NCBI RefSeq assembly: GCF_056746865.1
Contig: NZ_CM163382.1
Length of the DNA: 64,000 bases
Direction: 5' to 3' (one strand)
The notes beneath the pieces are model-generated. The model saw nothing but the letters and a program-made list of their open reading frames with translations, did not search any database and had not been told where the DNA came from. The translations under genes and the position numbers were made by a program. This document shows, one piece after another, positions 15,686 through 35,171 of this stretch (the stretch's first letter is position 1; every line of letters begins with the position of its first letter).

Positions 15686-15709
15686 CTATACACATTTCTA
15701 TACACATTT
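15686..15709. repeat. 12-bp tandem direct repeat (tctatacacatt x2) at the element's left end
   Basis: Exact tandem duplication read directly from the sequence. Confidence 0.4.
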
Positions 15710-16900: not shown

Positions 16901-16971
16901 TGGACGAAACAAAAGTCAGTGCTACATTCATTGACGCCACATCGAGGTGGCTTATAGATGGAAATTTCACA

Positions 16972-17133
16972 ATGAAAAAAGCATTTGCTGCACTGTTCGT
17001 TTTGTTGTCTCTGGTAGCTTCAACTCAGGCCTTTGCCGGTCGTTGTCAGCACGACAGCGATACTGCCGCTGACGGCTCCCGCTGCGGTGGGCGTTCTGCG
17101 GATTCCCGCCCGGGCGGCGGTGGCATTCGTTAA
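16972..17133 (+). CDS. Small secreted Gly/Arg-rich protein (hypothetical)
   Basis: 53 aa: MKKAFAALFVLLSLVASTQAFA signal peptide followed by a Gly/Arg/Cys-rich tail; the internal start of the 16900..17133 ORF is preferred because of the signal peptide. Confidence 0.35.
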   Translation: MKKAFAALFVLLSLVASTQAFAGRCQHDSDTAADGSRCGGRSADSRPGGGGIR

Positions 17134-17138
17134 AAACA

Positions 17139-17160
17139 AGGCCGCGAAAGCGGCCTGTTT
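17139..17160. terminator. Bidirectional intrinsic terminator between convergent genes
   Basis: Hairpin aggccgc-gaaa-gcggcct with A/T-rich flanks on both sides, between the 16972..17133 (+) and 17163..18014 (-) genes. Confidence 0.5.
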
Positions 17161-18014: not shown

Positions 18015-18015
18015 C

Positions 18016-21000
18016 CTATTTCATCTGCTCTTCAACTTTATTTAGTAATGGTGATATCGCCCACAGATTCTGAAAAGGTAGCATTTTACGGACAGCGTGG
18101 GTTTGCTGGCTGTCAAATTCTCCGTTAAGTACACCATTTGCAACCGTCGCGGCATCACCGCCAAGATCAAAGGTAGGACCAAGTAAAGCACCAATAGCAT
18201 TACGACTCTGAAACCTTGATACCGGAGGCGCACCAAACATCGCGCCAAGACCAAACCTACCGCCGCTTATGTTCTCAACGGTATTCAGCGGCTCAGAGAG
18301 CCAGCCAAGCATTCCGCCCCGGTCGATCCCCTCTTTCACAAGGTTATTCCAGCTGTAGTCGATATCGCGACCGCTTAACTTCTGTTTCATCATATAGACC
18401 ATTGAGCCAAGCGCAATCGTGCCAAGCGCACCAAGATAGAATGAAGCATCGCCCTGCTGGATACCAGATACCAACACCCTGTTATGCTGTGCGAAGATAA
18501 ACGTTTTGAACTGCGTGATCATCTTCCAGCCTTCTTTACTAAAAAACAGCGGTGTATCACCTACGCCAGGCGTTACAATCACTGAGTCTACATCTTTCAG
18601 CACTGCAGACTGGAAAATCTCTCTAGCGAAACGGTCATCCCACAGATGACTATGCCCGGTTAACAGCCCGTCCATATCCTCTCCGTGCTTCCCGAATTGC
18701 TCCCCGATTCGGCGCAGAACATCTTCATTGATGCCGACCTGTGCCATCTTCCGCATTTCACTTTTGGCGAGCGTGCCACCAGCAGAAACCTGGCGAGCCG
18801 CGTCAAGTATCCTCGACTGCACTATCATCCCGGACCATGATTTAAGTGCGCTGTTCCACTGATTCATCAGCGTCCAGTTACCGAATTTCTGCGTCATCCA
18901 GTTCAGGCCTCGCTCAGCGGCGCTTCTCCGGCTATAGGGGTCAGTAAGATCCGCTATAGCCTTTGTACGCGTAGACAGGACATAATCAAGCCCAACGGCC
19001 ATTTCTCGCAAATCCCTGGTTGCAATTTTCACTGAGTCCATATTTTTAAGCATGCTTACCATTGGTCCGAGAGATTTTCTCAGGCCATGCTGCATCATCG
19101 GTCGCATCAGATCAGTTGCAGCGGAGACGGTCATTCCACCAAGCAAACGGAGGAAGTTAATATTCCTAGCAACTCGCCCGGCACGAACAAAGAAACTGCG
19201 TGGATCTTGAGGTGCGCCGTAAGTACCAAGCAGTCGGTCACGCATAGCCGTAATATCCCTAATATCAGCCTCCCGTTGCTTCTCAAGAGCTGCACGTCGT
19301 TTAGGTGTTTTAGCCTCTTTTATTAGCCGGGTATATTCCTCACTAACCTGACGGATTTGCTCCCCCATATCTTTACGGCCAAACTGCGCAGTCAGCTCAA
19401 TTTCTGGTGCCACCTGCCGGAGATAACTTTCCATGATGTAGTTAACATCTGATTCAAGAAAATCTTCTATACGCTCATCAGGAATAAGCAGCGTTCGGCT
19501 TTTAGTGAAACCAGCCCGACCAACGAGTCTCTCTGGGATAATATCGGCTGGTACAAGCCCGGAAGGTGCGCCTATTATTTTATTCACGATCTCGTCAGCA
19601 GCGTCCTCTGCTTCCTCTCGGGATAGAGGCTCCATCTGCTTCAGTGCTCGCTCGCGGCTTGCATTCAGCCTTGTGGTTGAATTTGCCCGTTTTTGCAGTC
19701 GGCGAAGCTCAGAACGATATTTCCGTGGATTATCCAGCAACTCCATATGGCGCTGATAGACAGGAAGCTCACTCTTTGCCTGCGCTATATCATCAAGGCG
19801 TGTTTTAAGGTCAGAGCTTTCTTTCATCATTCTTGCCTGAAGTTTTTCTGATGAAGTCTCGGCCAACTCTTTTTCTATTCTTGTAAGACGCGCCTGTGTG
19901 TCAGTCTCCTGAGATATAAGCTTATTTCGTTTATCCAGTTCTTCCATGAGTAGAATTTTTTTACCAGACCATTTCTCCGCTTCAGCGATTTCACTAGCGA
20001 GAGCATCAGCGCGCGGTGCCGATTCCTCTGCAGTTTTTAGCAATGAATTTATCCTTTCAATTCGCTGACCTGCTTTGTCAGCACCTTTGGCACTAATCCC
20101 TTGTATCCAGTTGGCAATTCGCCCTCTGAATTCAGTGCGGTCGGAAAGTATCTTATCGAACTTATAAATGCGGGGAAGATAACTTTTCGCCGTCACGACA
20201 TCGATATCCTCAGGAAGGATCCCCAGTTCCTGCATACGGGCTTTTGTGGTCTCGAAAATGGGGCGGATTCTGGCGGCTGCTTGTGAAACCTCAGGAATAT
20301 CACTCTGATCACCACGGCGCATAGCCATGCCAACAGCTTCATTGAAATCAATAAAGCTCATCCTCTTCACGCCGCGGGCGCTGACAGATTTGCTGTACTG
20401 CTGGTAAGCATCACGAGTGGCTTCCATCTGCTTATAAAGCATGGCGTCGTATTGCTTAATCTTAGTCTCGACTGCCGTAAACGTAGCCAACCCCTCATCA
20501 TTTTTGGCGAAGAAATAGTTATTTTCGGCAAGCTGCTGGTTAATCTGACGGGAGACAAGAGATGGTGATTGCGCCAAGCGGCCAGCAGGAGTGACACTCA
20601 ACGTTTTGTTAGCAAGTCCAAGTCCAGCGAGCTGTTCCTGATCGAGTGTGGTATTGAAAACCTGAGCTGCACCAATGCTTTGAGGAGAATCCATACCTCG
20701 CAAATGATTACCTACTGAGTTAACCACTGCCTCGCGCGCGCTAGGTCCAGCAAGTAGCTGTGCACCAGCACCAAGGATCCCACCAACGAGAGCATCAACA
20801 ACAACGTTCGATACGCTCTCCATCGGTGAGCGAGCTTCCTGAGTGGCCTGCAATGCGGCCTCTGAAGCAACACTGCCAGCAGCATTGGCTAAAGCAAAAC
20901 GTCCGGCTGTTTCTGCAATACGACCGCCACGAACGACAGCGCCGAACGGAATAAACATAGAAATCGCATTGAATGGATCTGCTAATCTCATTGCTACAGA

Positions 21001-21405
21001 AGAGACTGTACCAGCAAATCCCAAGCCTGAATTGTATTCCATGTCAGCTCTCTGCTGATCGATTCGATGTTTAATTGCCATTGTTTCTTCAGGCGAACCG
21101 GAGTTGATAAACGAATCTGCAAAATCTTCATAGCCTTTAATATCTGCTGCATCGTTATCAAATGGGTTATATCCTTCAATCCTGTCAAACTGACTGAAAG
21201 GAGCACTGGCAATAAAGCTACCCAGCGTGTTATCTATACGAAATGCTGCTTGTCTAGACCTTTGAACGCGTTGATCACTGGTAAATGGGTTCACAGCAGA
21301 AAGCAAAGAAGGTGTTTCCATATAGAAATTACTGTCATCAGGTGCTGCTATTTGCTGAATATCCTCGCCAAGCAACTCTTTAGGATCCTGTTCATATATC
21401 GGCAT
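18016..21405 (-). CDS. Very large protein of unknown function (1129 aa; second gene of cargo operon)
   Basis: Long uninterrupted ORF; small-residue-rich hydrophobic segments (GAGAQLLAG, GALGTIALGSMVYMM, GLGAMFGAPP), long coiled-coil-like Glu/Lys/Arg/Gln-rich stretches, no P-loop or HExxH motif. Start codon overlaps the stop of the upstream 915 aa gene (TAATG). Confidence 0.75.
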   Translation of the reverse strand: MPIYEQDPKELLGEDIQQIAAPDDSNFYMETPSLLSAVNPFTSDQRVQRSRQAAFRIDNTLGSFIASAPFSQFDRIEGYNPFDNDAADIKGYEDFADSFINSGSPEETMAIKHRIDQQRADMEYNSGLGFAGTVSSVAMRLADPFNAISMFIPFGAVVRGGRIAETAGRFALANAAGSVASEAALQATQEARSPMESVSNVVVDALVGGILGAGAQLLAGPSAREAVVNSVGNHLRGMDSPQSIGAAQVFNTTLDQEQLAGLGLANKTLSVTPAGRLAQSPSLVSRQINQQLAENNYFFAKNDEGLATFTAVETKIKQYDAMLYKQMEATRDAYQQYSKSVSARGVKRMSFIDFNEAVGMAMRRGDQSDIPEVSQAAARIRPIFETTKARMQELGILPEDIDVVTAKSYLPRIYKFDKILSDRTEFRGRIANWIQGISAKGADKAGQRIERINSLLKTAEESAPRADALASEIAEAEKWSGKKILLMEELDKRNKLISQETDTQARLTRIEKELAETSSEKLQARMMKESSDLKTRLDDIAQAKSELPVYQRHMELLDNPRKYRSELRRLQKRANSTTRLNASRERALKQMEPLSREEAEDAADEIVNKIIGAPSGLVPADIIPERLVGRAGFTKSRTLLIPDERIEDFLESDVNYIMESYLRQVAPEIELTAQFGRKDMGEQIRQVSEEYTRLIKEAKTPKRRAALEKQREADIRDITAMRDRLLGTYGAPQDPRSFFVRAGRVARNINFLRLLGGMTVSAATDLMRPMMQHGLRKSLGPMVSMLKNMDSVKIATRDLREMAVGLDYVLSTRTKAIADLTDPYSRRSAAERGLNWMTQKFGNWTLMNQWNSALKSWSGMIVQSRILDAARQVSAGGTLAKSEMRKMAQVGINEDVLRRIGEQFGKHGEDMDGLLTGHSHLWDDRFAREIFQSAVLKDVDSVIVTPGVGDTPLFFSKEGWKMITQFKTFIFAQHNRVLVSGIQQGDASFYLGALGTIALGSMVYMMKQKLSGRDIDYSWNNLVKEGIDRGGMLGWLSEPLNTVENISGGRFGLGAMFGAPPVSRFQSRNAIGALLGPTFDLGGDAATVANGVLNGEFDSQQTHAVRKMLPFQNLWAISPLLNKVEEQMK

Positions 21406-24152
21406 TATTTGCCCCCTGCGTATATATTGCTCGGAAGGTAATTGGCTGAACCATAACCGAATGGTTTGGTCAGATCTGGAGGAGTATATCCATCTTTATT
21501 GCTGAACTGCGGCAGCGGATTGCCTTCTCTCCGCACTCTAGCCTCATCAACACGCTGTTGCTGGAACTGAATGGTTTGCCTGTACATTGGAGATGTCAGC
21601 TGATCCGGCTTGAAACGAACAGGGAGACCATTTTCTCCAATATAATTTCTCGGTTCTATCGCTCCGTTTGCGTCAGGCTGTAAAACCATAACAGCATAAC
21701 TCCTATCCCTTGCCGTAAGGCCATCAGAAACAAGTATTAAGTCCGTATCACTGCGAGGACCGCCAAAGGATTTTGATTTAAGCTCGCGTTTTTCCTGCTC
21801 CCACTGCCCCTGTATCCAGTTACCAGCACCATTATTTACTCCGTACAATGCCTCAGGTGCATACTTCATAACCTCTGCTTTGCCATTAACCGTAGAAACT
21901 CCCCAGGTGGTTCTGATCATGGCATTGGTCATTTTCTCAGCCTGTTCTGCATCGCCACCTGTCTGTACAAAGTTAGCATCGTAAATTGTCTGGTAATCTC
22001 GCTGATAGGCCGCATTTGATTTTCCTGGATCGGTAATATCCGGAGACCACGAACCAAAGGAAGTCAGACTGCTGGCGTTATTTTGTGCAGCAGTTACCCT
22101 CGCCGCGACATATTTTTTGTCTCGCATGGCAGTGGAAAGCATCTGTTTCATTCGGTCATCCTGTTGGAACACCTGACTGTAAGCCATATCAACAGCCTTA
22201 TCCTCCGGCACGCCAGCGCGGGAATAATCGTAAACCTTGCCATAAAATGCCATCGTACTTTTATCAAGTGTTGCCGCTGCCGCCGGATTATTATCGAATA
22301 ACTGACCGTAGAATTTTGCCATCGGGACAACCAGCGCAGGATCTCTTGATGTTGCTCCACTGTTAAGCATTGTTTTAACCTGAGTTGGTATCATGCCGCT
22401 TTTAGTTGTGACGGTGACCAGTGTATTGATGCTCTGCGGATCAGATATGGAAAACGAAGGCGCGATATCCTGCGCGAAATAACGGTCTACCGCTGCCTGA
22501 TTGTTTTTGTCGTTCGGGTCCAGCGGGAAGTTATTTTGCATTGAAGACACGAACCTGTTTCTTCCCTGCTGAATCTCCCACTCCCTATCCATCTCTTTAA
22601 ATTTGGCCTGCATTTTCTCCCAGCGTTGCTGGTTAGCAGCAAATCCAGGAGCATTTGGATCCTGTGGACGTAAACGTTCAAGAATGTCTTGTCGTCCTTC
22701 TGGAGTGAGGTCTTTAGCGGCACCAATGACACCTCCATATTGTATCTGCGCCTGCATATCCTTCCACTTCATAGCGCCAATGCGCGGACCATTGGCCCGG
22801 ATAAAATCGTCCTCAGAAGGTAACTTCTCAGGTTTCAATCCTTCATCAAGGGCTGAATATGCATCTTTAACTACGGTGCTAAGCTGGTCCGCATACTGCT
22901 GGCGGTACTGATTTCTCAGCTCATTAGCCTGCCTCAATGCCTGTATTTGCATTTGAGGGCTCATAGCATCAAATGCCGCATTGCCCGTATAACGCTTAGG
23001 TGAATCAAGGTTAGTTAGACCAAGGGCTGCCGAGATACCAGTTTCAAGCTGTTCGGTGCTATAAGGCATACTGCCATTTTCGTGTTTAATAATCCCAGCA
23101 CATAAAGCAGCTAGTGTCTTTGGGTTAGAGATATCAAGCTGATCATTCTCCCCAACACCAAGCTCACCACACAATGCCCTAATATAAGCATCAGTATTAT
23201 TACCATCACTAGCCGGAGCATAGCGATTAACAATCTCGCTAACGGTGTCATAGCCTTGACGCTGGTAAGACAACATATTTTTACCCAACGCGCGGATTCC
23301 ATGCTCAGGGGTAGCAAACGTTGCAAAACGTCCATCGCTACCGATCTGACCTTCCCACGGGTTAGATTTGCTCGCTTCAATATTACCAGGGTTATTATTA
23401 CGTAAACCACGAGCATCCAATGAATTACCATGTGATATTGCACGACTCACACCATCAAGATCCCCTGGCTCTCCATTAACCTGAAGAAACTCGTTGTATT
23501 TTTGAGCGATATTTCCTATCCATGCTTGCTGCCCCATTTGTTCCTTGAGCTGAGTTTTCTGCTGAACACGCCACTCATCAGGAAGCCCATGCGCATCAGC
23601 GTATTGATCAATAGATTCAAATCGCTGCTTGGCTAAATCGACAAATGCTTGGTTATAGCTATATAGCCCCGCAGACTGAGTGACAGCCAATGCATTTCCT
23701 GACAAATACGTTTGATCTTGGAATTGCTGAAACTGCCCAACTTCATATCGACGTGCCTGATTGTAATAAGACTGCATAGACTGCTGGAGTTGAAAGGATA
23801 ATTTATTCCTTTCCTCACTTTCAGGGATTGAGCCTAATAATGCCTGAGCCCTTTCCTGCATATTTTTCATAACAGCGTCACTCTGACCAAGAGCGTTTTT
23901 ACCCTGTTTAGAAATCAGCCCATTTTCAGGGTTGTTAATCTGGTCATCTGCAAATTGGTTAAATTGCAGTAACGCCTCCTGGGCCATAGCAACATTCGCT
24001 TTCTGCCTGGCTTCACCATATGCCACCGCATACTGATCTGCGACATTCGCCAGCACCTGACCTGCTTGAGGAACATCGAAGGTCTGAAAACCACCGGTTT
24101 GCACACCACGACTTTGCACCTGGCGTCCGGATGTAGTAGGAACAACAAGCAT
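21405..24152 (-). CDS. Very large protein of unknown function (915 aa; first large gene of cargo operon)
   Basis: Long ORF preceded by strong SD (AGGAGGT 6 nt upstream); Gln/Ala-rich helical protein with a central block RNNNPGNIEASKSNPWEGQIGSDGRFATFATPEHGIRALGKNMLSYQ that looks like a conserved domain I cannot assign. Confidence 0.75.
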   Translation of the reverse strand: MLVVPTTSGRQVQSRGVQTGGFQTFDVPQAGQVLANVADQYAVAYGEARQKANVAMAQEALLQFNQFADDQINNPENGLISKQGKNALGQSDAVMKNMQERAQALLGSIPESEERNKLSFQLQQSMQSYYNQARRYEVGQFQQFQDQTYLSGNALAVTQSAGLYSYNQAFVDLAKQRFESIDQYADAHGLPDEWRVQQKTQLKEQMGQQAWIGNIAQKYNEFLQVNGEPGDLDGVSRAISHGNSLDARGLRNNNPGNIEASKSNPWEGQIGSDGRFATFATPEHGIRALGKNMLSYQRQGYDTVSEIVNRYAPASDGNNTDAYIRALCGELGVGENDQLDISNPKTLAALCAGIIKHENGSMPYSTEQLETGISAALGLTNLDSPKRYTGNAAFDAMSPQMQIQALRQANELRNQYRQQYADQLSTVVKDAYSALDEGLKPEKLPSEDDFIRANGPRIGAMKWKDMQAQIQYGGVIGAAKDLTPEGRQDILERLRPQDPNAPGFAANQQRWEKMQAKFKEMDREWEIQQGRNRFVSSMQNNFPLDPNDKNNQAAVDRYFAQDIAPSFSISDPQSINTLVTVTTKSGMIPTQVKTMLNSGATSRDPALVVPMAKFYGQLFDNNPAAAATLDKSTMAFYGKVYDYSRAGVPEDKAVDMAYSQVFQQDDRMKQMLSTAMRDKKYVAARVTAAQNNASSLTSFGSWSPDITDPGKSNAAYQRDYQTIYDANFVQTGGDAEQAEKMTNAMIRTTWGVSTVNGKAEVMKYAPEALYGVNNGAGNWIQGQWEQEKRELKSKSFGGPRSDTDLILVSDGLTARDRSYAVMVLQPDANGAIEPRNYIGENGLPVRFKPDQLTSPMYRQTIQFQQQRVDEARVRREGNPLPQFSNKDGYTPPDLTKPFGYGSANYLPSNIYAGGK

Positions 24153-24785: not shown

Positions 24786-25994
24786 TCAGGCTGTCGCCTG
24801 AATCATTTCGGTGGGTTCCTGCTTCAACGGGCGGCCTGACTGCACCATCCCTCCACAGGCAAGAACGGCGTGCCCCGCCGCTAAAATGTTACGAGCGCCG
24901 TTTACATCGGCGTTCGCTGTATATCCACATACCTGGCATCTGAATTGACTTTGTGACAGGCGATTTTCTTTCGCTGTATGACCACAGCACGCGCAACGCT
25001 GGCTTGTGTACGCTGGCGGAACAGCAAGCACCTGACCGCCACACCAGAGCTGCTTGTACTCAAGCTGACGGCGCATTTCATACCAGCCCTGATCCAGTAT
25101 CGAACGGTTTAAACCTGATTTTGCCCGGACATTGCGCCCCGGCTGGCTGACCGTACCCGAGGCTGACTTTGACATGTTGCTGACCTTCAAATCCTCAATG
25201 ACTATCATTGCGTGGTTTTTGCTGATGGTCGTTGTGACTTTGTGAAGGTAGTCCCTGCGGATATTTGCGATACGGGAATGCAGTCGCTGTATTTTGCGTT
25301 TCTGCTTCTGCCAGTTGTTGCTGAATTTAACCTTGCGGCTTAACTGGCGCTGAAGTCTCGCCAGCTTCTTCTGGTTTTTATGAAAACTGTTTACAGGCTC
25401 AAAGACCGTGCCATCTGACAGCGTGGCGAGTTTAGCCACGCCAGCATCCAGCCCGACCATTAATGCTGAAGGGTGAACCGGAGTTGATACTTCACTTTCT
25501 GTCTGAATACTGATGTACCACTTACCGCAGGACTGGCTGACAGTGACATTTTTCACAACACCCGTGACCTGACGGCTGTTCCGGTAGCGCATCCAGCCCA
25601 GTTTCGGCAGAAAAATACGGCTGTTTTCCTGATCGAGCTTAACACCCTGCGGATAGCGGAATGCATCATGCTGTCCCCGCTTTTTGAATCGGGGAAAAGC
25701 GGCACGCTTCTGAAAGAAATTTTTGTAGGCTCGCTCAAGGTCTTTCAGTGACTGCTGCAATGGCTGTGAGGGAGAATCTTTAAGCCATTGCGTTTCAGTA
25801 GCATTTTTCCATTCAACCAGCCAGGAAGTCATCTTTGCATAAGAAATATATTTGTTCCCGGCCTCATGATTCTCATTCTGAAGCGCCAGAGCACGATTGA
25901 AAACGAAACGACATGCGCCCGCGAAGCGCCTCATTTCACGCTCCTGTTTTCCATTTGGTCTTAACTGGAATTTGAAAGCTTGTAGTCGTTTCAT
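24786..25994 (-). CDS. tnpB: TnpB (OrfB) RNA-guided nuclease-like protein of IS200/IS605 family
   Basis: 402 aa with a C-terminal zinc finger (CACCGH...CQVCGY) and RuvC-III-like motif (DVNGARNI). Confidence 0.85.
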
Positions 25995-26016
25995 ATGCCA
26001 AATTATACTTTGGCCT

Positions 26017-26433
26017 ATGAAAAAAGAAACCGATATCCGACGTGGAAGGCACTGTGTCTTCCTGATGCACGTTCACCTGGTCTTTGTTACCAAGTACCGA
26101 CGCCAGATTTTTGACCATGACGCAATAGAAAAACTACGCACTTACTTTTCAAGTGTATGTGCTGATTTTGAAGCTGAACTGGTTGAAATGGATGGAGAAC
26201 GAGATCACGTTCACCTGCTAATTAACTATCCTCCCAAATTGGCGATATCCACCCTGGTGAACAGTCTCAAGGGCGTATCGAGTAGATTATTGCGACGAGA
26301 TCGACCAGATATTGCAGTCAGGTATTACTACAAAGGCGTTTTATGGAGTCCCAGCTATTTTGCCAGTAGCTGCGGAGGTGCGCCAATATCCATCATCCGC
26401 CAATACATTGAACAACAGCAAACACCTAGTTAG
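26017..26433 (+). CDS. tnpA: IS200/IS605 Y1 (HUH) transposase TnpA
   Basis: Internal start MKKETDIRRG of ORF 25897..26433; HUH motif HVHLVF and the catalytic-Tyr region YYYKGVLWSPSYFASSCGG. Confidence 0.85.
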   Translation: MKKETDIRRGRHCVFLMHVHLVFVTKYRRQIFDHDAIEKLRTYFSSVCADFEAELVEMDGERDHVHLLINYPPKLAISTLVNSLKGVSSRLLRRDRPDIAVRYYYKGVLWSPSYFASSCGGAPISIIRQYIEQQQTPS

Positions 26434-27152: not shown

Positions 27153-29279
27153 TTAATCTTCTGCTTCAGGCTGGAACATCAGCACGTAAAAAATATGTTG
27201 CTTCCCGCCAATCCTGCCGAGCGCCTTTTTCTTGTAACGGCGGTCGCCTCCCGCTTCCAGCATTCCGGCTGCACTCAACGCGCGGGCAAAGTGAGACGGA
27301 TTAAATCCCTGTGCTATCTCACCCTCAAACACATGCGGGAACGTGTAAAAACGGAACTCGTCATCTTCGTTTCTGATACTCCCCTTTCTGTATCCGGCAA
27401 GGTCTTTAATCGGTAAATCACGCTCGTCGCTGTTTGGATAGGGAAGGTATCGACTGAACCCGAACGACGACAAAAACGCCTCAGCCTGTTCAACCATCTG
27501 TTTAAACTCCCTGTTCCCCGTGCCGAACTCCTTCACCCAGGCATTAAAATTATGCTGAATGGCATCGCGGCATTCCTGCTCATCCCAGCCAGTAACATGA
27601 CCGGAAAGTACAAGCGCGGCCTCCAGTATGGCGAATCGTTCCCCCACACGGTGAACCTGTTCGCCGTAGCTCTCCGGTATCAGGTTGCGCCACCGCTCGC
27701 GACATGCCCTTACCGCGTCCTTTGCCTCCTGCTGGTGTTCTGCCAGCCATTTAACCCACTCACGACCTGCCGCCCCGTGATTTTCTGTCCAGGCATCTTT
27801 TAACGCGTCTGCGTGCGCCTTTCCGGTGCTGTATTCGTGAAACTGCGAGGCCTTTTCCATCGGCACGTTAAGCAGACGGACAAGCTGCCCCGCTTTAATT
27901 TTTATCCCTTCCGTTTTGAGGAATGTTTCAACGTCCATTTCTCCGGTGCTGATTGCCACCGTGCGCCAGTGTTTTATCTCCCTGTTGCCGCCGTCCTTCG
28001 CCCCCTGTAATTTCCCCGAACCGTTAAACAGCGTATAGGCTGACGTGGACACCTCCCGCGCGTTTCCGGCCTGGCCTATTTCATCCAGGGGTAACAGCCC
28101 GTCATTATGTGCTTCGGCCTCGTTGGCGATACCTAACGCCGTTCCGTACCAGGTCAGCCGTTGCGCGTCCGGCTCTCCCCATAAACTTGATGCAATGTTC
28201 TGTGTGGTGGTTTTACCTGCTGATGATTGCTCAAAAAGATGAACCCCGAAGCCGTCAGCACCCACCAGCCCGATTAATGGTGCAGATAGCGATACCGCCA
28301 CACCCAGCATCATGGACGGATTACCACCAGCCAGCCGTGCCACGGTATCGCGCCAGCCCTCCGCTGTTCCCGCCACGGAATAGCCATTAACAGCGGCAGT
28401 TTTTCCGGTAAACAGGATGGGTTTCTCTGATTCACCGATGATCGAACCATCCGGCATGATGTACGCACCAAAATGCCACCCCGTTGTTGTGCTTAACTGC
28501 CATTCCTCATGGTTTCCGCTTAACTGCATCCAGTCAGCCAGGATAGCCCTGTATTTGCCGTTGGTCGTCACGTTAAGGCCGTGGTCTTTCAGCAACCGCC
28601 AGCCGTCACGGTCACCAATGCCTCCGCACGGGACCGCCATTGTAATGACCTCATGGTTTGCTGGTTTTTTCCAGCGCATCACGCGGTAATGCTCTTTGCC
28701 GATTGTTCCTGTTCCCAGTAGTTCAAGCGGAGAACATAACCACGTCTCAGGCCGGATAATTTCGCCTGACTGCTTGTCCACTTTGGGCGTTACCCAGAAA
28801 ACACCATCGACGCGACTTTCAACACGAGGCTTTAATTCGTCATCATAATTTCCGGTGAAATTTGTCTTCGCCGGAAGGTTGATCACCAGACTGTTACCGC
28901 GTTCCGCATCATACTTCAGTCCAGCCATGCGCGGAGTCCAGTCCTCCGGCTGCTGATCAACAAAGCTGCGGTAGCAACGCGCCTCCTTCACACCCGCCAC
29001 TGCAAGCAGTGTCGCTATCTGTGTAAGGTGCTGCTCTGATATTTCACCAGCACGATAAATGCGCACGTAATAGCGTCCTTTGTCGATGATTTGCGTGTCT
29101 GCCAGACTCGCCAGTTGTTCCGGTCCAAGAATAACTGGATGTGTATCATCTGCCGCAATATGCTTTCCGGCCCATTCGCTCCACTCTTTCGCATGTGCCC
29201 AGGCATCACTACCCGCAAAGATAATCACCTCCGTCATTTTGTCTTTCGGCTGGTGCTTTAAATTCGGTGCGCGTTTCAT
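27153..29279 (-). CDS. Primase-helicase (TOPRIM-like N-terminus, P-loop NTPase of the DUF927/D5 type), P4 alpha-like replication protein
   Basis: 708 aa; N-terminal TOPRIM-like segment (VIIFAGSDAWAHAK...PVILGPEQ) and Walker A EQSSAGKTT; iterons lie immediately downstream. Confidence 0.75.
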   Translation of the reverse strand: MKRAPNLKHQPKDKMTEVIIFAGSDAWAHAKEWSEWAGKHIAADDTHPVILGPEQLASLADTQIIDKGRYYVRIYRAGEISEQHLTQIATLLAVAGVKEARCYRSFVDQQPEDWTPRMAGLKYDAERGNSLVINLPAKTNFTGNYDDELKPRVESRVDGVFWVTPKVDKQSGEIIRPETWLCSPLELLGTGTIGKEHYRVMRWKKPANHEVITMAVPCGGIGDRDGWRLLKDHGLNVTTNGKYRAILADWMQLSGNHEEWQLSTTTGWHFGAYIMPDGSIIGESEKPILFTGKTAAVNGYSVAGTAEGWRDTVARLAGGNPSMMLGVAVSLSAPLIGLVGADGFGVHLFEQSSAGKTTTQNIASSLWGEPDAQRLTWYGTALGIANEAEAHNDGLLPLDEIGQAGNAREVSTSAYTLFNGSGKLQGAKDGGNREIKHWRTVAISTGEMDVETFLKTEGIKIKAGQLVRLLNVPMEKASQFHEYSTGKAHADALKDAWTENHGAAGREWVKWLAEHQQEAKDAVRACRERWRNLIPESYGEQVHRVGERFAILEAALVLSGHVTGWDEQECRDAIQHNFNAWVKEFGTGNREFKQMVEQAEAFLSSFGFSRYLPYPNSDERDLPIKDLAGYRKGSIRNEDDEFRFYTFPHVFEGEIAQGFNPSHFARALSAAGMLEAGGDRRYKKKALGRIGGKQHIFYVLMFQPEAED

Positions 29280-29578
29280 TTCTTGCCCCTGAATGCGTTA
29301 ATCATGTTCTTTATTACCTGAATATTTGCCCGTGCTTTCTCTTTACTGGTGGGCTTACTGCGTGGTGCTGCACATACCAGTGAAAAATCACGCCGGAACT
29401 GATGAACGGGCATCACACAGTCATAGTCGTACCCTGCGCGGCGGTATGTAATGTGCCGTTCATACACGGAATTAATAACCACGCTGTCGCCATATTTATC
29501 CCGGAAAATATCCCCGATCCTGATTTTCGGATGAGTCTGTCCGCTGGCATTTAAGCCAGTAAATTTAATCTTCTTCAT
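29276..29578 (-). CDS. Hypothetical protein (100 aa), translationally coupled to primase gene
   Basis: ORF whose stop overlaps the primase start; no recognisable motif. Confidence 0.5.
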   Translation of the reverse strand: MKKIKFTGLNASGQTHPKIRIGDIFRDKYGDSVVINSVYERHITYRRAGYDYDCVMPVHQFRRDFSLVCAAPRSKPTSKEKARANIQVIKNMINAFRGKK

Positions 29579-29580: not shown

Positions 29581-29838
29581 TTATTTCCCGGTGTGAGGTT
29601 CTTCTTTATATTTATGGGCTAACAAATCTGGTAATTGCCTGTATTTATCCTCGGCAATATATTCAGAATAATCGACAGCACTGTTCAGTATATCTAACGC
29701 CGTTTCATGCTCCAGATTCGAAACTATAAGGAACGTTGCTACTTTTAGCATATTCGCGATATGCAAAAGAGCATCAATTTCATTTTTTGGCGCTTCACTG
29801 AATTTTTGCTCCAGAAGAATAAATCGTTCATCACGCAT
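29581..29838 (-). CDS. Hypothetical protein (85 aa)
   Basis: ORF in the same operon, 2 nt upstream of the next gene. Confidence 0.5.
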   Translation of the reverse strand: MRDERFILLEQKFSEAPKNEIDALLHIANMLKVATFLIVSNLEHETALDILNSAVDYSEYIAEDKYRQLPDLLAHKYKEEPHTGK

Positions 29839-30034
29839 AGTATTCCCCCTGACGGATGCGGGCAGTAAATACCATCACGCAGCCAGCCGGGGATTGCTGG
29901 CGTGCTTCCTGTTCGCTGGTGGCCACGATGGTAATCACACGCGGTTTTGCGGCGCTCAGGGCGATAAAACGCCAGGCGAATTTATTCAGGTTGTGCGAAT
30001 CCCGCCCTTGCGGGTGTATGGTATGATTTCTCAT
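29831..30034 (-). CDS. Hypothetical protein (67 aa), first gene of replication operon
   Basis: C-terminal part of the spurious 415 aa ORF 29831..31078; start ATG at 30034 is preceded by GAGGT and overlaps the next gene by 8 nt. Confidence 0.45.
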   Translation of the reverse strand: MRNHTIHPQGRDSHNLNKFAWRFIALSAAKPRVITIVATSEQEARQQSPAGCVMVFTARIRQGEYYA

Positions 30035-30130
30035 AGCTACCTCGATACTCTCGTTATCGTTGGTGGTTAGAAGCCCTGCGAGTGGTAACGACACTTGCGG
30101 GGCTTTGTTTTTTGTTGCACTTACTGTTAA

Positions 30131-30174
30131 TGTACGTACGTAATATTGATGATAATAGGAGTTACGTACGTACA
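30131..30174. promoter_or_regulatory. Operator: inverted repeat tgtacgtacgtaa-N18-ttacgtacgtaca in divergent promoter region
   Basis: 13-bp arms, each containing the self-complementary octamer GTACGTAC; the right arm overlaps the start codon of the RHH gene. Confidence 0.5.
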
Positions 30175-30365
30175 TGTCAACATTAAAGCGGGATAAATCA
30201 CCACGCGGCGAGGGATGGTCGCCGACATTCCAGATACGAATTAGCAAAGAACTACGCCAGCAAGTAAACGAGGCAGCAACCGCCGATGGCCTAACCCTCG
30301 GCAATTGGTTTAAAGAATTAGCTCGTGCCGAACTAAAGCGACGCGGCATTGAACCTAAAGGCTGA
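30174..30365 (+). CDS. Ribbon-helix-helix (Arc/Mnt/CopG-like) DNA-binding protein, candidate repressor
   Basis: 63 aa; FQIRISKELRQQVNEAATADGLTLGNWFKELARAEL fits the beta-strand/helix/helix RHH pattern; it sits on the palindromic operator. Confidence 0.55.
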   Translation: MSTLKRDKSPRGEGWSPTFQIRISKELRQQVNEAATADGLTLGNWFKELARAELKRRGIEPKG

Positions 30366-30551
30366 TGTATGACTGAAAAGCAGACCGATAACAAACTTTC
30401 TCTACCAGAGAATAAACCAGCAGGCTTCTTACCAAGAAAAATCCTTGATGAGATCAAACGCCGCCAGCGGCGCAAGGCCAAAGAGCAGGAGTAACCATCA
30501 CCAGCGCCGTGGTGCGGTGAACTGTGGCGCACAGGGTTACAGGTATCTACG

Positions 30552-30749
30552 ATGACTGACAAATCATTAAAGAAATTATCCTCATCCAGGAAAAAACAAC
30601 GCAAAAATGCGGTAAGCGAACAAGAACAGGAAAGATTTGCGCCATGTGCGTTTGTCCTTGAGAAGTTCTTAAAAGAGTACAGGCGCACAAAAATGGAATC
30701 GCATACCTGGAAAACATCGCAGTATGGCGATGCTAAAGAGCAGGAATAG
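30552..30749 (+). CDS. Hypothetical basic protein (65 aa)
   Basis: ORF only; weak support. Confidence 0.3.
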   Translation: MTDKSLKKLSSSRKKQRKNAVSEQEQERFAPCAFVLEKFLKEYRRTKMESHTWKTSQYGDAKEQE

Positions 30750-30917
30750 CCCACCAGCAAGCCAGCACACTGATCACATTGCCCACCAGCCGCAAATCTG
30801 GCATTGTTGGCGATGCGTTTGATTTCCTTTGTTCCCACTGGCGACCTATCCCGGTCGCCTTTGTTTTGCCTGTTATCCAGCAACGGGGCGCTTTTTCTTT
30901 CTGTAACGTTCGGATCG

Positions 30918-31475
30918 TTACACATTGCTTTCACCCTCCAGAAAATCAGGCTGATATTTACGCCATAGCGCCCGCTCTTCTCGTTCCAGTGCATCTTTTG
31001 CCTCTTTGCATTGCTGTAACCTGTAACCGCGTTTGCTGGCTTCCTGTTGATATGCAGCCTGACGTTTACTGAAATCATTCAGCATGGCAAACGGAACACC
31101 ATAACCCCCCGTTTTGCGGATTGAAGGAATCACCTCGCGGAATACCCAGTTACTGAAACGGTGCGCAAATGTGCCTGGTGTGGAAGCTTTACGGCTGCGG
31201 GCGATCAGTTTGTAGAAACCTGATTCAGAGACAACATTCCAGCTTCTGGCACCACCACGCTTACCGGAATGACCCTCGGTTAAAGCTAGGGTCATTACCT
31301 CATCGTTATCCAGAACTGAAACGGCATCAGTAACATTGCTGATTTCCAGCGCGGCACACACATCAGCGCCAACAAACCACGGCTCGCCGTTGATACTCAC
31401 TATGCGCACCTGAATGTCATCGAATTTAATGACAGAGATTTCAGTGCGACCGGCATAAAAGACAGGTTTACGCAT
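30918..31475 (-). CDS. Bro-N domain protein (phage antirepressor-like)
   Basis: 185 aa; N-terminal Bro-N-like segment FDDIQVRIVSINGEPWFVGADVCAALE. Confidence 0.7.
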   Translation of the reverse strand: MRKPVFYAGRTEISVIKFDDIQVRIVSINGEPWFVGADVCAALEISNVTDAVSVLDNDEVMTLALTEGHSGKRGGARSWNVVSESGFYKLIARSRKASTPGTFAHRFSNWVFREVIPSIRKTGGYGVPFAMLNDFSKRQAAYQQEASKRGYRLQQCKEAKDALEREERALWRKYQPDFLEGESNV

Positions 31476-32292
31476 GGCTGCTCACCTCCATGCGGCGGGC
31501 TAACCAGCGTTGCGAAAGACGAATTAATTCAGCTTTCCGCTGGTGGTAGTCCTGGCCTAACTCAATCAGCGTGATATTGCTCTGCTCAAGGTAAGAAAGG
31601 TGCTCAAGCTGCAGCGTGCTCATGTGGTCGCGTGGTTCGCCTGTGATGCCGTTCGCCTGCGCCCACTGTTTTGCATTCATGCCACCCAGCACGATACGCG
31701 CCAGCATATTGGCTTCCGTGGTGTAGTGGTGCTGGAGCGTGTTTTTACCCAGTTCAGCCCGGTACGCCTCCAGCGCGGCACACATTGGCTTAAAGTAGCT
31801 GGCTACGGTGATACGGGCTTTCAGTTCCCGGCGTAACGCTGCGGAACGTACAGGCGCTACCTTGTGTAGCTCCTCCTCGCATTTGATGAAGTACTGACGA
31901 ACGGCGCGGCCCTGTTCGGTGCGTTCGATCATTGCCAGTTCTTTCGCCATTCCGACACTTAACAGATAGTCTTTACCGGGTCTGCCAGAGTGCTTAATCT
32001 TGCTGTAAGCCTCGCCATTCGGGCTTTTCCCCAAATTTGGGGAAATTGTTTTATGGACTGAGTAATCGTACCCAATGGTGAAGTCATATTCAGAGATACG
32101 ATCAGTGATCCATGTAGAGAAGTCTTTTCCCACGCCCAACGCTTTGTGTAACGCTTTTGCGCTAACAACAGCGGCTTCACGCCCGCCAATAACGCCGGAA
32201 ATAACCGGGATAATTTCGCCGAAATTTTGCAGATTCTGGTTTTCAGGCCGAACAAAGCCCTGCCCCTGTACGGGCGTTTTTCGCAGTTTCAT
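31468..32292 (-). CDS. Phage antirepressor-like protein (Ant/KilAC-type)
   Basis: 274 aa; resembles prophage antirepressor proteins (ALHKALGVGKDFSTWITDRI); start overlaps the Bro-N gene. Confidence 0.55.
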   Translation of the reverse strand: MKLRKTPVQGQGFVRPENQNLQNFGEIIPVISGVIGGREAAVVSAKALHKALGVGKDFSTWITDRISEYDFTIGYDYSVHKTISPNLGKSPNGEAYSKIKHSGRPGKDYLLSVGMAKELAMIERTEQGRAVRQYFIKCEEELHKVAPVRSAALRRELKARITVASYFKPMCAALEAYRAELGKNTLQHHYTTEANMLARIVLGGMNAKQWAQANGITGEPRDHMSTLQLEHLSYLEQSNITLIELGQDYHQRKAELIRLSQRWLARRMEVSSHA

Positions 32293-32367: not shown

Positions 32368-32565
32368 TCAGGCAGCCGTTCCGCGTGATTCGGCAATACG
32401 CTGATTGATCCATTCGTCAATTTCACTTTCAACGAAAGCAATCGCTCGCGAGCCAATTTTAACTGATGCAGGAAATTTACCTTGCCCCATAAGGCGATAA
32501 ATCCATGCCTTGCTATATCCAGTTCTACGCTGAACTTCTGTTAAACGAATAAGCGTATTTGACAT
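32368..32565 (-). CDS. alpA: AlpA-family transcriptional regulator / excisionase-like protein
   Basis: 65 aa with the MerR-like HTH pattern of AlpA (LIRLTEVQRRTGYSKAWIYRLM...SEIDEWINQR). Confidence 0.8.
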   Translation of the reverse strand: MSNTLIRLTEVQRRTGYSKAWIYRLMGQGKFPASVKIGSRAIAFVESEIDEWINQRIAESRGTAA

Positions 32566-32792: not shown

Positions 32793-33596
32793 TTAATCCG
32801 GCTTTGCGTTCTTTTGGCTGTTGTCTCGGTTAATAGGGCAGGCAGTCCTCTCTATGAGCGTTGCAAGAGCATTACTTGCCCCCCACTGCTTAAGCTCCCT
32901 AGTTATCGCTTCTTGATTTCCCCTGGTGGCAAAATCATTTTCTGGATCGTAATTGGCCCACTCTCTGTTTCTAATCTCAATAGCCTTAGCTAATGGGTCT
33001 TTATCCCAGTATTTATATAAGTGTATCGGGCGCTCTTGCTCTAACTGCTCTATCCTTGCCCTTAACTCTGCGTTTTCTCTTTCCAGCATTGCGATTTGGG
33101 ATAATAAATCATCCTCTGTACGCAACTCTTTCTTTTCAATATCGCGTCCTTGTACCTCGTCATTTTCAGAAGAGTTAGCGCCTTCCAGCTTCGTTAACGC
33201 GTCAAGGACATCGGGAAAAATTGCGAAAATTTCACCCCTTATAAATCCAATGTTCTCAAATTCGGGATCTTCCCAATAACCGGACACCAGAAAACCATTT
33301 TCATCCCTCTCACCAGGTAAACAACCATGTTTCCGAACCGCATCCAGATTTCTATAAAGAACATCATAATCAAATTCATCCCGATACGGGTTACAAAAAG
33401 ATTCCAACAGCTTAAATTCATTTACTGTGTACAGGCGGATATGTTCTCCGCTTATTCTCCTGAGTATCCAAGTTATGAGATCTGAAACATCATAATCATC
33501 ACCAGCGACCTTAAGCACGACCTCAAGAAATTCACGTAAAGAAATAAAATCTTTTTTGTATTCGTTTAATTCGGCATGAATATCAATCATACGCAC
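32793..33596 (-). CDS. Hypothetical protein (267 aa) between integrase and alpA
   Basis: Acidic protein with a coiled-coil segment (IAMLERENAELRARIEQLEQE); no catalytic motif recognised. Confidence 0.6.
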   Translation of the reverse strand: MRMIDIHAELNEYKKDFISLREFLEVVLKVAGDDYDVSDLITWILRRISGEHIRLYTVNEFKLLESFCNPYRDEFDYDVLYRNLDAVRKHGCLPGERDENGFLVSGYWEDPEFENIGFIRGEIFAIFPDVLDALTKLEGANSSENDEVQGRDIEKKELRTEDDLLSQIAMLERENAELRARIEQLEQERPIHLYKYWDKDPLAKAIEIRNREWANYDPENDFATRGNQEAITRELKQWGASNALATLIERTACPINRDNSQKNAKPD

Positions 33597-33718
33597 ACCT
33601 CAGCGTCCTCTACTGTAGTGGCTGTGCCAGCCCGTCGAGGTATACGGTTTTTCGGGAGCGACCCTAGACACAGCTTTTTCTTTCGTCGCTCAAAGTCTAC
33701 TACTGTATACTCAACCAG

Positions 33719-34972
33719 TCATCCACATTTTCCGAACTTGCCATGCACCACGTTGCCGCCCTGTTCCAGTGAGTCCATATAGTCGGCGTACCACTGGAGC
33801 ATCTCGCGCCGCCCGTCCAGATATTGCGCATGATTGTACGTGCCACGAATTGAGTTCTTATCAACGTGTGCAAGCTGCGTTTCTATCCACGCGGTGTTAT
33901 AGCCCTGCTCATGTAAAATCGTGCTCATCGTGTGCCGGAACCCATGACCAGTAACGCGCCCAGAATAGCCAATACGACGAATAAGCACGTTCATCGCCAT
34001 TTCACTCATCGGCTTACTGTGCTGGATTCGACCAGGGAAAATAAACTGATACTGCCCCGTCATGTGTTTTAACTGTTCCAGAATAGCGATCGCCTGTTCT
34101 GAAAGCGGCACACAATGAGGACGGCGCATCTTCATTCGTTCTTTAGGCACTTCCCACAAACGATTATCAAAATCGATCTCCTGCCATTCTGCCTGTCGTA
34201 ATTCCCCTGGCCGGAGCCCTGTCAGAATCAATAATCGCATACCCAGCTTGACGATCTGGCTTCCGGTGTACGTATTAAGAACGCGGAAAAATTCCGGCAG
34301 TTCGTCGGCCTTCAAATAGGCATAATGCTCTTTTTTGTGTGGAGCAAATGCGCTTGCCAGATCTGGTGCGGGGTTATATTCAGCGCGTCCGGTGATGATT
34401 GCGTACCGGAACACCTCGCCGCATCGCTGGCGAACCTTACGCAATTTTTCGGTCGCCCCACGGTCATTAAGACGGGAGAGAACCGCAAGCAACTCCATTG
34501 GCTTAATTTCTGCGATCGGCCTGCCGCCAATGTACGGAAAAACGTCTTTTTCAAACGTCTCGATCATTTCCTCGGCGTATGACGATGACCACCTGTCGAT
34601 CCGCTTTTCATACCATTCGCGAGCGATACCCTCAAAAGTATTGCCAAATTTGCTCGCCTGTTCTCGCTTTTGAGCTTTTCTGGCCTCACTTGGATTTATA
34701 CCACCAGCAAGAAGCCTTTTAGCCTCATCCCTTGCCGCTCTGGCATCAGACAGAGACACATCAGGGTACACGCCCAACGACAACATTTTGGGCTTTCCTG
34801 CAAATCTGTAACGTAGTCGCCACCCTTTCGAGCCGTTCGGCTCAATGAGTAACGAAAGCCCGTTACCGTCATTGAGTGTATAAGCCTTTTCTTTCGGCTT
34901 CGCGCGCCTGATAGCAAGGTCTGAAAGCAGCATGTGTATAGCTCCAAAAAATAAATTTTGTCCTATACGCAT
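33719..34972 (-). CDS. int: Tyrosine site-specific integrase (P4 / CP4-57 IntA family)
   Basis: 417 aa with an N-terminal arm-binding-like domain and a C-terminal catalytic region (HGFRHT, LAHVDKNSIRGTYNH); adjacent to the tRNA 3' end. The true start may be the internal MLLSDLAIRR. Confidence 0.9.
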   Translation of the reverse strand: MRIGQNLFFGAIHMLLSDLAIRRAKPKEKAYTLNDGNGLSLLIEPNGSKGWRLRYRFAGKPKMLSLGVYPDVSLSDARAARDEAKRLLAGGINPSEARKAQKREQASKFGNTFEGIAREWYEKRIDRWSSSYAEEMIETFEKDVFPYIGGRPIAEIKPMELLAVLSRLNDRGATEKLRKVRQRCGEVFRYAIITGRAEYNPAPDLASAFAPHKKEHYAYLKADELPEFFRVLNTYTGSQIVKLGMRLLILTGLRPGELRQAEWQEIDFDNRLWEVPKERMKMRRPHCVPLSEQAIAILEQLKHMTGQYQFIFPGRIQHSKPMSEMAMNVLIRRIGYSGRVTGHGFRHTMSTILHEQGYNTAWIETQLAHVDKNSIRGTYNHAQYLDGRREMLQWYADYMDSLEQGGNVVHGKFGKCG

Positions 34973-35097: not shown

Positions 35098-35171
35098 TGG
35101 AGCGGGCGAAGGGAATCGAACCCTCGTATAGAGCTTGGGAAGCTCTCGTTCTACCATTGAACTACGCCCGC
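35098..35171 (-). tRNA. glyU: tRNA-Gly (anticodon CCC)
   Basis: Reverse complement reads GCGGGCGTAGTTCAATGGTAGAACGAGAGCTTCCCAAGCTCTATACGAGGGTTCGATTCCCTTCGCCCGCTCCA: cloverleaf-compatible, anticodon loop CTTCCCAAG, T-loop GGTTCGATTCC, 3' CCA. Confidence 0.9.

Follow-up and report, generated by a model that had tools for sequence, protein, structure and literature searches.

A predicted ribbon-helix-helix repressor-operator cassette at the replication operon of a P4/PICI-type satellite island

Introduction

The immI region of phage P22 carries the ribbon-helix-helix (RHH) repressors Mnt and Arc, the promoters Pant and Pmnt, and the sar antisense RNA, and immI of phage P1 has the order c4 RNA, icd, ant. 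In pMV158, the RHH protein CopG binds a pseudosymmetric promoter element and the counter-transcribed RNAII lies over the translation start of repB. Among satellites, the repressor genes stl of Staphylococcus aureus pathogenicity islands (SaPIs) and rpr of Gram-positive phage-inducible chromosomal islands (PICIs) lie divergent from the excision-replication operon (PMC6092414). For Gram-negative PICIs, AlpA is the sole known activator and activates the island EcCICFT073 together with an ORF3 fusion (Fillol-Salom, 2018; PMC6092414); the same study calls it ‘unclear’ whether these islands have a global repressor, and neither it nor the zone description of Tommasini (2023; PMC10111431) mentions the regulator that is the subject of this work. 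Here we analyze a 64-kb stretch of DNA (contig NZ_CM163382.1 of RefSeq assembly GCF_056746865.1), hereafter the window, to which all positions refer. The window contains an inverted repeat at the start of a gene for a 63-amino acid (aa) protein, divergent from the replication operon of a P4/PICI-type satellite island. The explanation that we favor overall, and consider likely, is that these elements form an RHH repressor-operator cassette that would control the replication operon, with antisense-RNA and read-through layers added to it.

Results

A putative paired operator within a predicted divergent promoter region

The arms of the inverted repeat, TGTACGTACGTAA (30131-30143) and TTACGTACGTACA (30162-30174), are separated by 18 bp, and each contains the octamer GTACGTAC. 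A preliminary description of this locus had reported two 13-bp arms with a self-complementary octamer in each and a gap of 18 bp, which matches the sequence; the perfect complementarity in fact reaches 14 bp (30130-30143 versus 30162-30175). The further claim that the right arm overlaps the start codon of the 63-aa open reading frame (ORF) is borne out by an ATG at 30174, the A of which is covered by the 13-bp arm and the AT by the 14-bp arm, and the divergent operon that had been placed about 100 bp to the left starts at 30034, 96 nt from the left arm. The elements of this region are as follows.

30130-30143: box L, the left arm ATGTACGTACGTAA, with core GTACGTAC at 30132-30139 (repeat search, shuffles, six-locus alignment)
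30162-30175: box R, the right arm TTACGTACGTACAT, with core GTACGTAC at 30166-30173 (repeat search, six-locus alignment)
30152-30180, minus strand: P_L, a leftward sigma-70 promoter (consensus scan), the positional equivalent of P4 PLE
30125-30133, plus strand: P_R, a proposed extended -10 element, TGtTAATGT, with a predicted start at ~30140, within box L
30174-30365, plus strand: gene for the 63-aa predicted RHH repressor, termed class A

The whole window contained no second inverted repeat that is spaced, perfect, and 12 bp or longer, with its arms no more than 60 bp apart, and GTACGTAC was found twice in the window versus an expectation of 0.35. In 2,000 dinucleotide shuffles of the intergenic region, 14 bp was never reached, the longest repeat being 11 bp. 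P_L comprises TTGACA (30180-30175), a 17-nt spacer, and TATTAT (30157-30152), with a predicted start at ~30145. It matches the consensus at 11 of 12 positions, and no other site in the window, on whichever strand, reached 11 or more; in block shuffles, sites of this quality numbered 0.73 per 64 kb. Chance as the source of the repeat and of the promoter was ruled out by the shuffles.

Box R occupies the spacer between the -35 and -10 elements of P_L and abuts the regulator ATG, and reverse-complementing bases 2-7 of the regulator coding sequence (ATGTCAA) gives the -35 hexamer of P_L. Box L spans ~+1 to +15 of P_L and also overlaps the -10/+1 that is proposed for the regulator’s own promoter. 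Of 11 class A loci, 7, which represent five regulator types, have the extended -10-like sequence TGnTAnnnT exactly 6 nt ahead of box L, and the regulator’s own start would consequently fall inside box L. This suggests that the regulator has its own promoter, P_R. The divergent promoter region proposed earlier is thus supported at the level of sequence by a leftward promoter close to consensus, the spacer of which holds one arm of the repeat and the predicted start site of which holds the other.

The 63-aa protein is predicted to be an Arc-like RHH protein

An AlphaFold (AF2) model of the 63-aa protein built with 21 homologs (pLDDT 73) has an extended segment at residues 18-24 and helices at 25-37 and 42-56. 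Foldseek searches with this model returned RHH proteins almost exclusively among the top matches, of which Arc was the best (TM 0.86, rmsd 1.7) and among which CopG also occurred. A profile of 13 class A sequences matched Arc in the PDB (E = 0.008), and the 63-aa protein itself matched the PHROG ‘Arc-like repressor’ family (E = 1.8e-4); further RHH-type matches, to DUF6290 and MobA, were below threshold. Collectively, the model, the Foldseek matches, and the Arc profile match support the RHH-like fold suggested for this protein in the preliminary description.

Aligned with Arc, residues T18, Q20, and R22 stand at the places of the base-contacting Arc residues Q9, N11, and R13. R22 and Q20 are invariant and T18 nearly so among close homologs, and the three are predicted to be the base-reading residues of the beta-strand. 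Homologs that are 63-97% identical were found in Escherichia, Edwardsiella, Citrobacter, Salmonella, Morganella, and Klebsiella. A second group of regulators, class B (YlcI/YnfO), has an RHH domain homologous to that of class A (hhalign probability 88%, E = 3e-6). These sequence relationships indicate that the 63-aa protein belongs to a class that is related to, but distinct from, YlcI/YnfO.

P_L faces a P4-type replication operon

The operon to the left of the boxes comprises the following genes.

29831-30034, minus strand: Icd-like gene, 67 aa (NF033153), which opens the leftward replication operon
29581-29838, minus strand: 85-aa gene
29276-29578, minus strand: DUF4222 gene, 100 aa
27153-29279, minus strand: DUF927 replication protein gene, 708 aa
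26517-26942, minus strand: SSB gene, after the DUF927 gene

These genes have the sizes given in the preliminary description, which listed 67-, 85-, and 100-aa genes followed by a primase, and their content (Icd/Kil-like, DUF4222, DUF927, SSB) agrees with its view of the operon as a replication module. The term primase calls for a correction. For the 708-aa protein, matches were limited to DUF927 and a model of a cassette-chromosome helicase; neither a Toprim nor a zinc-ribbon primase domain was detected in it, whereas longer relatives (887-904 aa) have both; since no primase domain was detected, ‘replication protein’ is the safer name for this product.

The Icd-like model NF033153 is also matched by Kil of P4 (65 aa; E = 1.6e-21). 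The PHROG label ‘transcriptional repressor’ on the Icd-like protein was rejected, as it appears to be inherited from the old annotation of P4, in which the Kil-containing ORF is a ‘cI gene product’ and yet belongs to the same Icd-like family. That P_L would drive an Icd-like gene of the P4 Kil family suggests a P4-type early region in which a protein repressor replaces the CI RNA.

Boxes are kept and exchanged with the regulator

In an alignment of six loci, the gene for the 63-aa-type protein was always divergent from an operon of small genes, which ended in a D5_N/DUF5906 primase, Toprim plus DUF927, or DUF927 alone, or in one case was Mu-like. The upstream DNA in this alignment had a mean column identity of 71%, with the left GTACGTAC and ATGTCAA invariant and the right box conserved. 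The boxes, which are palindromes of 8-10 bp, and the reverse-strand TTGACA are kept in Escherichia, Edwardsiella, Morganella, Klebsiella, and one metagenome locus, and the flanks diverge. Because the boxes are kept while the type of replication protein changes, they follow the regulator rather than the replication protein. The Mu-like case, locus L008 from Klebsiella (2860-3192 of that locus), shares with the window the type of RHH protein, boxes of the GTACGTAC type, and the arrangement of hairpin and promoter; it borders a region that encodes Mor, a Gp27-like protein, and a protease and has no primase operon; its presence in a Mu-like setting suggests that the module is portable between element types.

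Comparison with 5,426 complete E. coli genomes showed that the Icd-like gene and its leader are present in 1,232 of them. Similarity of the window to these genomes ends at ~30115 and restarts at ~30464, and query coverage of at least 80% was reached in only 5 of the 5,426, indicating that the class A (GTACGTAC) cassette is rare in E. coli. In sister islands, a YlcI/YnfO protein takes the place of the regulator, with other repeats in the same layout.

Cassettes were typed in ~85 loci in total, of which 80 were IMG/VR loci anchored on the Icd-like protein. The regulators comprised 28 distinct N-termini and 18 clusters at 80% identity. Each type has a -35 element (TTGACA, TTGACG, or TTGAAG) 131-148 nt from the icd ATG and boxes of its own, one in the P_L spacer and one past the -10; class B types have a third box directly past the regulator’s own TATACT or TATATT. 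The Jaccard index of repeated 8-mers was 0.335 within regulator clusters versus 0.007 between them. Class A boxes share the frame GGT-N4-ACC, which accompanies the invariant beta-strand Arg, and their centers vary with the neighboring beta-strand residues. Class B boxes are mostly GTG-N5-CAC and are asymmetric, and in some types (L044 and EcCICFT073) they occur solely as direct repeats. The same hairpin and promoter layout is present in Pasteurella phage Pmp8, which has a YQMRL-type regulator and boxes, GGTAATTACC/GGTATATACC, that match those of the enterobacterial locus L079, likewise of the YQMRL type. The 101-aa class B regulators of the L016/L004 and L019 types, from IMG/VR and E. coli loci, are near-identical except for the N-terminal ~25 residues, which include the beta-strand, and their boxes differ, suggesting exchange of specificity by recombination inside the gene.

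Collectively, these comparisons of sequence indicate that the regulator and its boxes are an exchangeable specificity cassette of ~350 bp, at about 30113-30460, between conserved flanks. The features to the right of the regulator are as follows.

30369-30494, plus strand: 41-aa ORF, whose C-terminal IKRRQRRKAKEQE and following TAACCATCACCAGCGCCG are identical to the class B (YlcI/YnfO) 3' end
30552-30749, plus strand: conserved 65-aa partner gene (phrog_21027), present in class A and class B islands
30840-30869, plus strand: terminator-like hairpin and T-run that close the rightward regulator operon

The 3' end that the 41-aa ORF shares with class B appears to be the trace of a cassette exchange, with the right recombination junction at ~30455-30465. 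The 65-aa partner is restricted to Escherichia and unannotated.

A long frame is open through the cassette on the opposite strand

29831-31078, minus strand: long frame of 415 codons as listed, resembling P4 eta

This frame crosses three plus-strand genes (65-aa, 41-aa, and RHH) and the operators in antisense before it enters the Icd-like gene in frame, and an in-frame ATG (30925-30923) shares bases with the bro stop codon. Between 30032 and 30925, the icd frame contains no stop codon, while the other two minus-strand frames contain 22 and 10. Among 53 distinct loci, 44 have an icd frame that is open for 146-376 codons, with 9-26 stops in the other frames, and in 17 of 18 cassette types the regulator stands in a single phase relative to it, all 17 being stop-free. 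Stop depletion specific to one frame led us to reject an accidental long minus-strand ORF, and a conventional conserved protein is unlikely, the middle of the frame being wholly different between cassette types and without a Pfam match. The stop-free frame antisense to the repressor genes is, on these comparisons, an unusual case of constrained overlapping coding that is held open by selection. An equivalent long frame, likewise in frame into the Icd-like gene, was seen in locus L097 (17767-19053 of that locus, plus strand).

A candidate antisense RNA covers the start of the Icd-like gene

30019-30116, plus strand: candidate cis-antisense RNA of ~80 nt (promoter motif, hairpin, covariation)

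The putative promoter of this RNA has an extended -10, TGgTATGAT (30019-30027), inside icd codons 3-5, with a predicted start at ~30033-30036. Downstream are a stem, CGATA/TATCG (30043-30047/30055-30059), the conserved TTGGTGGTTAGA, and a hairpin (30070-30106) that is followed by a T-run and scores as a plus-strand terminator. The RNA would be complementary to both the Shine-Dalgarno sequence (SD; 30040-30043) and the AUG of the Icd-like gene.

Among ~20 variants of the hairpin, the plus strand was the more stable in 54 of 54 segments (mean -22.9 versus -17.0 kcal/mol), a difference that is due to G.U pairs. We therefore rejected the view that the hairpin serves the leftward mRNA as a 5' stem-loop, that strand being the less stable in every segment. 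In an alignment of 20 sequences evaluated with a two-hairpin model, double changes were found in 15 of 20 pairs, and none of 500 shuffles reached the observed values. The covariation score was 0.40 versus at most 0.14 in slid controls. In 47 of 48 distinct segments, among them loci with a different Icd N-terminus, the -10 motif (TGnTATGAT/TATAAT/TATATT/TACGAT) occupies one and the same position, its end lying 4 nt ahead of the icd start codon. Rfam contained no family for the leader or hairpin (whole window at the gathering threshold; 29700-31000 at E ≤ 10), and nearby matches to mir-297 (in the arms) and to the R1162 antisense RNA (minus strand) were dismissed as chance (E 6-8). These observations suggest that an antisense RNA of ~80 nt is made here and acts on the ribosome binding site of the Icd-like gene.

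Discussion

A proposed mechanism and the evidence for and against it

We propose that the 63-aa protein, as an Arc/MetJ-type RHH repressor, would bind as one dimer per GTACGTAC box. Occupied boxes R and L would switch off transcription of the Icd/Kil-like, DUF4222, DUF927, and SSB genes; shut-off of the replication operon is to be expected because box R lies in the P_L spacer and box L over the P_L start site. The same boxes would cover the weak promoter and the 5' end of the regulator gene and thereby give negative autoregulation, which is plausible since box L overlaps an extended -10-like motif and since the third box of class B types lies at the regulator’s own promoter. The cassette would in this way be akin to a phage immunity region within a P4/PICI-type early control region. 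The antisense RNA (~80 nt) would block the ribosome binding site of the Icd-like gene. Upon induction, an AlpA-dependent upstream transcript, for which the AlpA-like, AntA, and Bro-N genes are the proposed source, would be translated through the eta-like ORF and bypass both the repressor and the antisense RNA, by analogy with eta of P4 (P4 is summarized in PMC10111431).

The preliminary description had viewed the locus as an autoregulated repressor controlling the replication module of an element, and sequence evidence of several kinds supports this view: the fold, the promoter, and boxes that are both co-conserved and co-exchanged with the regulator. We infer from it that the 63-aa protein binds DNA, represses the operon, and regulates its own gene.

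Several observations weigh against this reading. Foldseek E-values for the 63-aa model were at least 0.2, as expected at a length of 45 residues, and the protein is below the cut-off of every curated family that it matches, scoring 17.6 bits versus 21 for HicB and 20.3 bits versus 30 for YlcI_YnfO_N (NF041551; E = 4e-4). The consensus scan found no rightward promoter for the regulator, and the regulator’s SD is 12 nt from its ATG, which is a long spacing. Box spacing is 30-35 bp across loci, so that cooperative binding on one helix face is not obvious. The regulator of the IMG/VR locus L080, with the beta-strand KKNIRFE, is only 36% identical to the window protein and has the same GGTACGTACC box. 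The fixed -10 of the candidate antisense RNA sits in coding sequence, the conservation of which may partly reflect the protein, and in class B cassettes the hairpin is followed by weaker T-runs. Edwardsiella has a closed long frame, as does the L016 type, the exception among the 18 types and the commonest cassette, in which the regulator takes another phase and the frame has eight stops. Synonymous resampling gave probabilities of zero stops of 0.08-0.84 per type, values that are individually weak, and the stop-free signal is consequently collective rather than a property of each locus.

The L080 box, TGGTACGTACCA, lies upstream of the Icd-like gene and contains the window-type core GTACGTAC. 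It may represent convergent or cross-reacting specificity.

Other explanations of the repeat

The palindromes could instead serve only the autoregulation of a small toxin-antitoxin operon in which the RHH protein is the antitoxin, with no control of replication. Several homologs of the 63-aa protein carry the database name ‘HicB family antitoxin’, the protein weakly matches Pfam HicB and a PHROG HicB-like antitoxin, two small genes come next in its operon, and many RHH antitoxins are among the Foldseek matches. The Pfam alignment is nevertheless confined to the RHH part of HicB (profile positions 19-47); the 63-aa protein is a ~45-residue RHH unit only, with no HicB N-terminal domain. Neither the 41-aa nor the 65-aa neighbor matches HicA or another toxin family, and some class A homologs (L005, L008) stand alone, without a downstream partner gene. 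Moreover, the boxes lie in the core of the strong leftward promoter, not the rightward one, and the module always faces an Icd-like/replication operon. We regard an antitoxin as very improbable. It is harder still to credit the boxes as iterons or origin sites for the island’s replication protein. The alpha protein of P4 binds octamer repeats in ori and crr, type 1 repeats of 8 bp occur close to the control region of P4, and the boxes adjoin the replication operon, yet GTACGTAC boxes accompany the same RHH protein beside four different replication or operon types, and the near-identical DUF927 proteins WP_000710148 and WP_000710147 stand beside different boxes when the regulator differs. The boxes, moreover, number only two or three and are set precisely on promoter elements.

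The repeat could also act as RNA, folded into a 14-bp stem whose loop contains the SD and whose base lies at the AUG, in control of translation of the regulator or in a role within the read-through transcript, with no protein bound in either case. Complementarity between the arms is perfect, the 18-nt loop contains AGGAG, and two copies of any palindromic box can pair. With the predicted starts (~30145 leftward, ~30140 rightward), neither local transcript would contain both arms; the asymmetric class B boxes, direct repeats in L044 and EcCICFT073, cannot form such a stem; and the boxes co-vary with beta-strand residues of the regulator. An RNA element thus seems quite improbable to us, and it is disfavored, as are an antitoxin and iterons, by the context and by the behavior of the boxes across loci. 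In a final alternative, the RHH protein would repress P_L and, by relieving promoter competition, activate its own divergent promoter, the kind of switch by which Mnt works at Pant/Pmnt of P22. The -10 regions of the proposed divergent promoters are ~20 bp apart and their start sites ~5 nt apart. In contrast, box L lies over the proposed -10 and start of P_R and the class B box directly past the regulator’s -10, both of which are typical of repression, and P_R is itself a prediction. We consider an activating switch of this kind possible but unlikely.

The island and its surroundings

The genes upstream of the cassette and the end of the island are as follows.

30918-31475, minus strand: Bro-N gene, co-oriented with the icd operon
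31468-32292, minus strand: AntA gene, co-oriented with the icd operon
32368-32565, minus strand: AlpA-like gene, co-oriented with the icd operon
33607-33674, minus strand: int-alpA RNA motif, at the island end
33719-34972, minus strand: tyrosine integrase gene, at the island end
35098-35171, minus strand: tRNA-Gly(CCC) gene, at the island end

Gram-negative PICIs have been divided into the four zones Integration, Bro, Replication, and Late (Tommasini, 2023; PMC10111431). The order in the window (int, AlpA-like, AntA, Bro-N, cassette, Icd-like, DUF4222, DUF927, SSB) fits the first three, with int and alpA co-oriented at the end, a Bro-network zone, and the replication protein and SSB. Between int and alpA (region 32793-33674, minus strand), a spot of variable cargo in related satellites, is a 267-aa gene without a family match; the int-alpA RNA motif (46.9 bits, Rfam RF02996) comes ahead of it, immediately downstream of the integrase gene. 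The core of P4-like satellites in SatelliteFinder comprises int, psu, delta, and sid, together with alpA, epsilon, and alpha (PMC8628076); sid, psu, and delta did not turn up among the ORFs scanned, for which no search with dedicated profiles was made.

Past SSB are an IS200/IS605-type element and three large ORFs without a match to a capsid, packaging, or defense family (Pfam, PADLOC). The element (24786-26433) has divergent, overlapping ORFs of 402 aa and 178 aa that are TnpB-like and TnpA-like by eye, and it adjoins the island SSB gene where related PICIs have their late/capsid zone. The three ORFs, of 283, 1,129, and 915 aa, lie in series in the distal island (17163-24152, minus strand), have no informative Pfam or PADLOC match, and are possibly novel cargo or a defense system.

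Farther out, a type I-E cas operon (cas3, cse1, cse2, cas7) was seen in 9581-17160, with no long ORF past cas7, which ends at 15543; casD, casE, cas1, and cas2 were not looked for. The ~1.6 kb between cas7 and the island genes has no ORF of more than 107 aa and contains an AT-rich palindrome (16085-16116); it may be the distal junction of the island or a deletion. A full-length sok antitoxin RNA of the hok/sok type I system (7743-7900, plus strand; Rfam 111.7 bits) adjoins cysH, and an insertion sequence with a DDE transposase (8108-9226) lies beside it.

Comparison with known systems

The island EcCICFT073 (NC_004431.1, 1377930-1388654) has the whole module, with a class B regulator, three GGTGTGGCCCAC boxes, and a TTGACG-18-TATAGT promoter; its hairpin is identical to that of the window and its antisense -10 is the same. 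Its long ORF, of 428 aa, starts 53 nt past alpA, and the first 49 residues match the N-terminus of the window AntA (E = 9e-18); this ORF is probably the ‘ORF3’ with the AlpA-dependent fusion. Both islands have the order int, AlpA, Bro-network gene, Icd-like, DUF4222, primase-type protein, SSB. They differ in that the window has a class A cassette, separate AntA and Bro-N genes, and the IS200/IS605 element with large genes of unknown type where EcCICFT073 has capsid genes. The module genes of EcCICFT073 carry recently added locus tags, and the module was not described in the literature searched on Icd-like/satellite, YlcI/YnfO, P4-like RHH, and PICI master repressor topics, subscription journals aside.

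We put forward tentatively, with less than even confidence, the broader proposal that RHH/YlcI-YnfO cassettes are the missing master repressors or immunity determinants of Gram-negative PICI-type satellites, including EcCICFT073, and act as a three-layer switch: a protein repressor on an internal early promoter, an antisense RNA on the Kil/Icd ribosome binding site, and an eta-like frame, held open across the repressor genes on the other strand, in which AlpA-driven and translated read-through overrides both. The EcCICFT073 module would then be a concrete candidate for the unsettled global repressor of Gram-negative PICIs (PMC6092414). If the proposal is true, the many exchangeable specificities would let several islands share one cell without cross-repression, which would explain satellite silence and mutual compatibility and help to annotate thousands of enterobacterial islands. 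The regulator-operator specificities, of which there are at least 18, would also constitute a natural set of orthogonal small repressors.

The likeness to immI of P22 and P1 is functional only. There, as proposed here, the operators on which an RHH repressor acts lie in a strong promoter that shares sequence with a divergent one, the leading gene has its ribosome site covered by a short antisense RNA, and that gene is of the Icd type; Arc is also the closest solved structure to the 63-aa protein. In immI, however, the controlled operon encodes an antirepressor rather than replication functions, and the cassette here is nested antisense in another ORF; an Rfam search detected no homology of the candidate RNA to the c4 or sar families. 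With pMV158 the window would share replication genes under an RHH repressor and an antisense RNA, both of which are predicted here. In that plasmid, CopG is co-transcribed with repB, whereas the regulator here is divergent, has many exchangeable specificities, and belongs to an integrated satellite. SaPI Stl and PICI Rpr resemble the cassette in that a divergent repressor gene stands beside a satellite replication operon; those repressors are larger helix-turn-helix proteins relieved by helper-phage proteins, whereas the regulator here is an RHH protein for which no helper interaction is predicted.

The early region of P4 is similar in architecture. In P4, kil is the leading gene of the alpha operon and lies in frame within eta; eta itself begins with an ATGA that overlaps the vis stop codon, and searches with Rfam located the C4 (CI) and isrK (seqA) RNAs inside eta. 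The window operon is likewise headed by a Kil-family Icd-like gene nested at the 3' end of a long ORF, which begins at the stop codon of an upstream gene on the AlpA/Vis side, with an internal promoter and a co-oriented AlpA-type gene upstream. C4 and isrK were not found in the window (gathering threshold over the whole window; E ≤ 10 in 29700-31000). Where P4 has the CI RNA and seqA, the window has a divergent RHH gene and operators antisense in the eta-like frame, together with the candidate antisense RNA. This suggests that the immunity determinant of a P4-type early region may be either an RNA or a protein.

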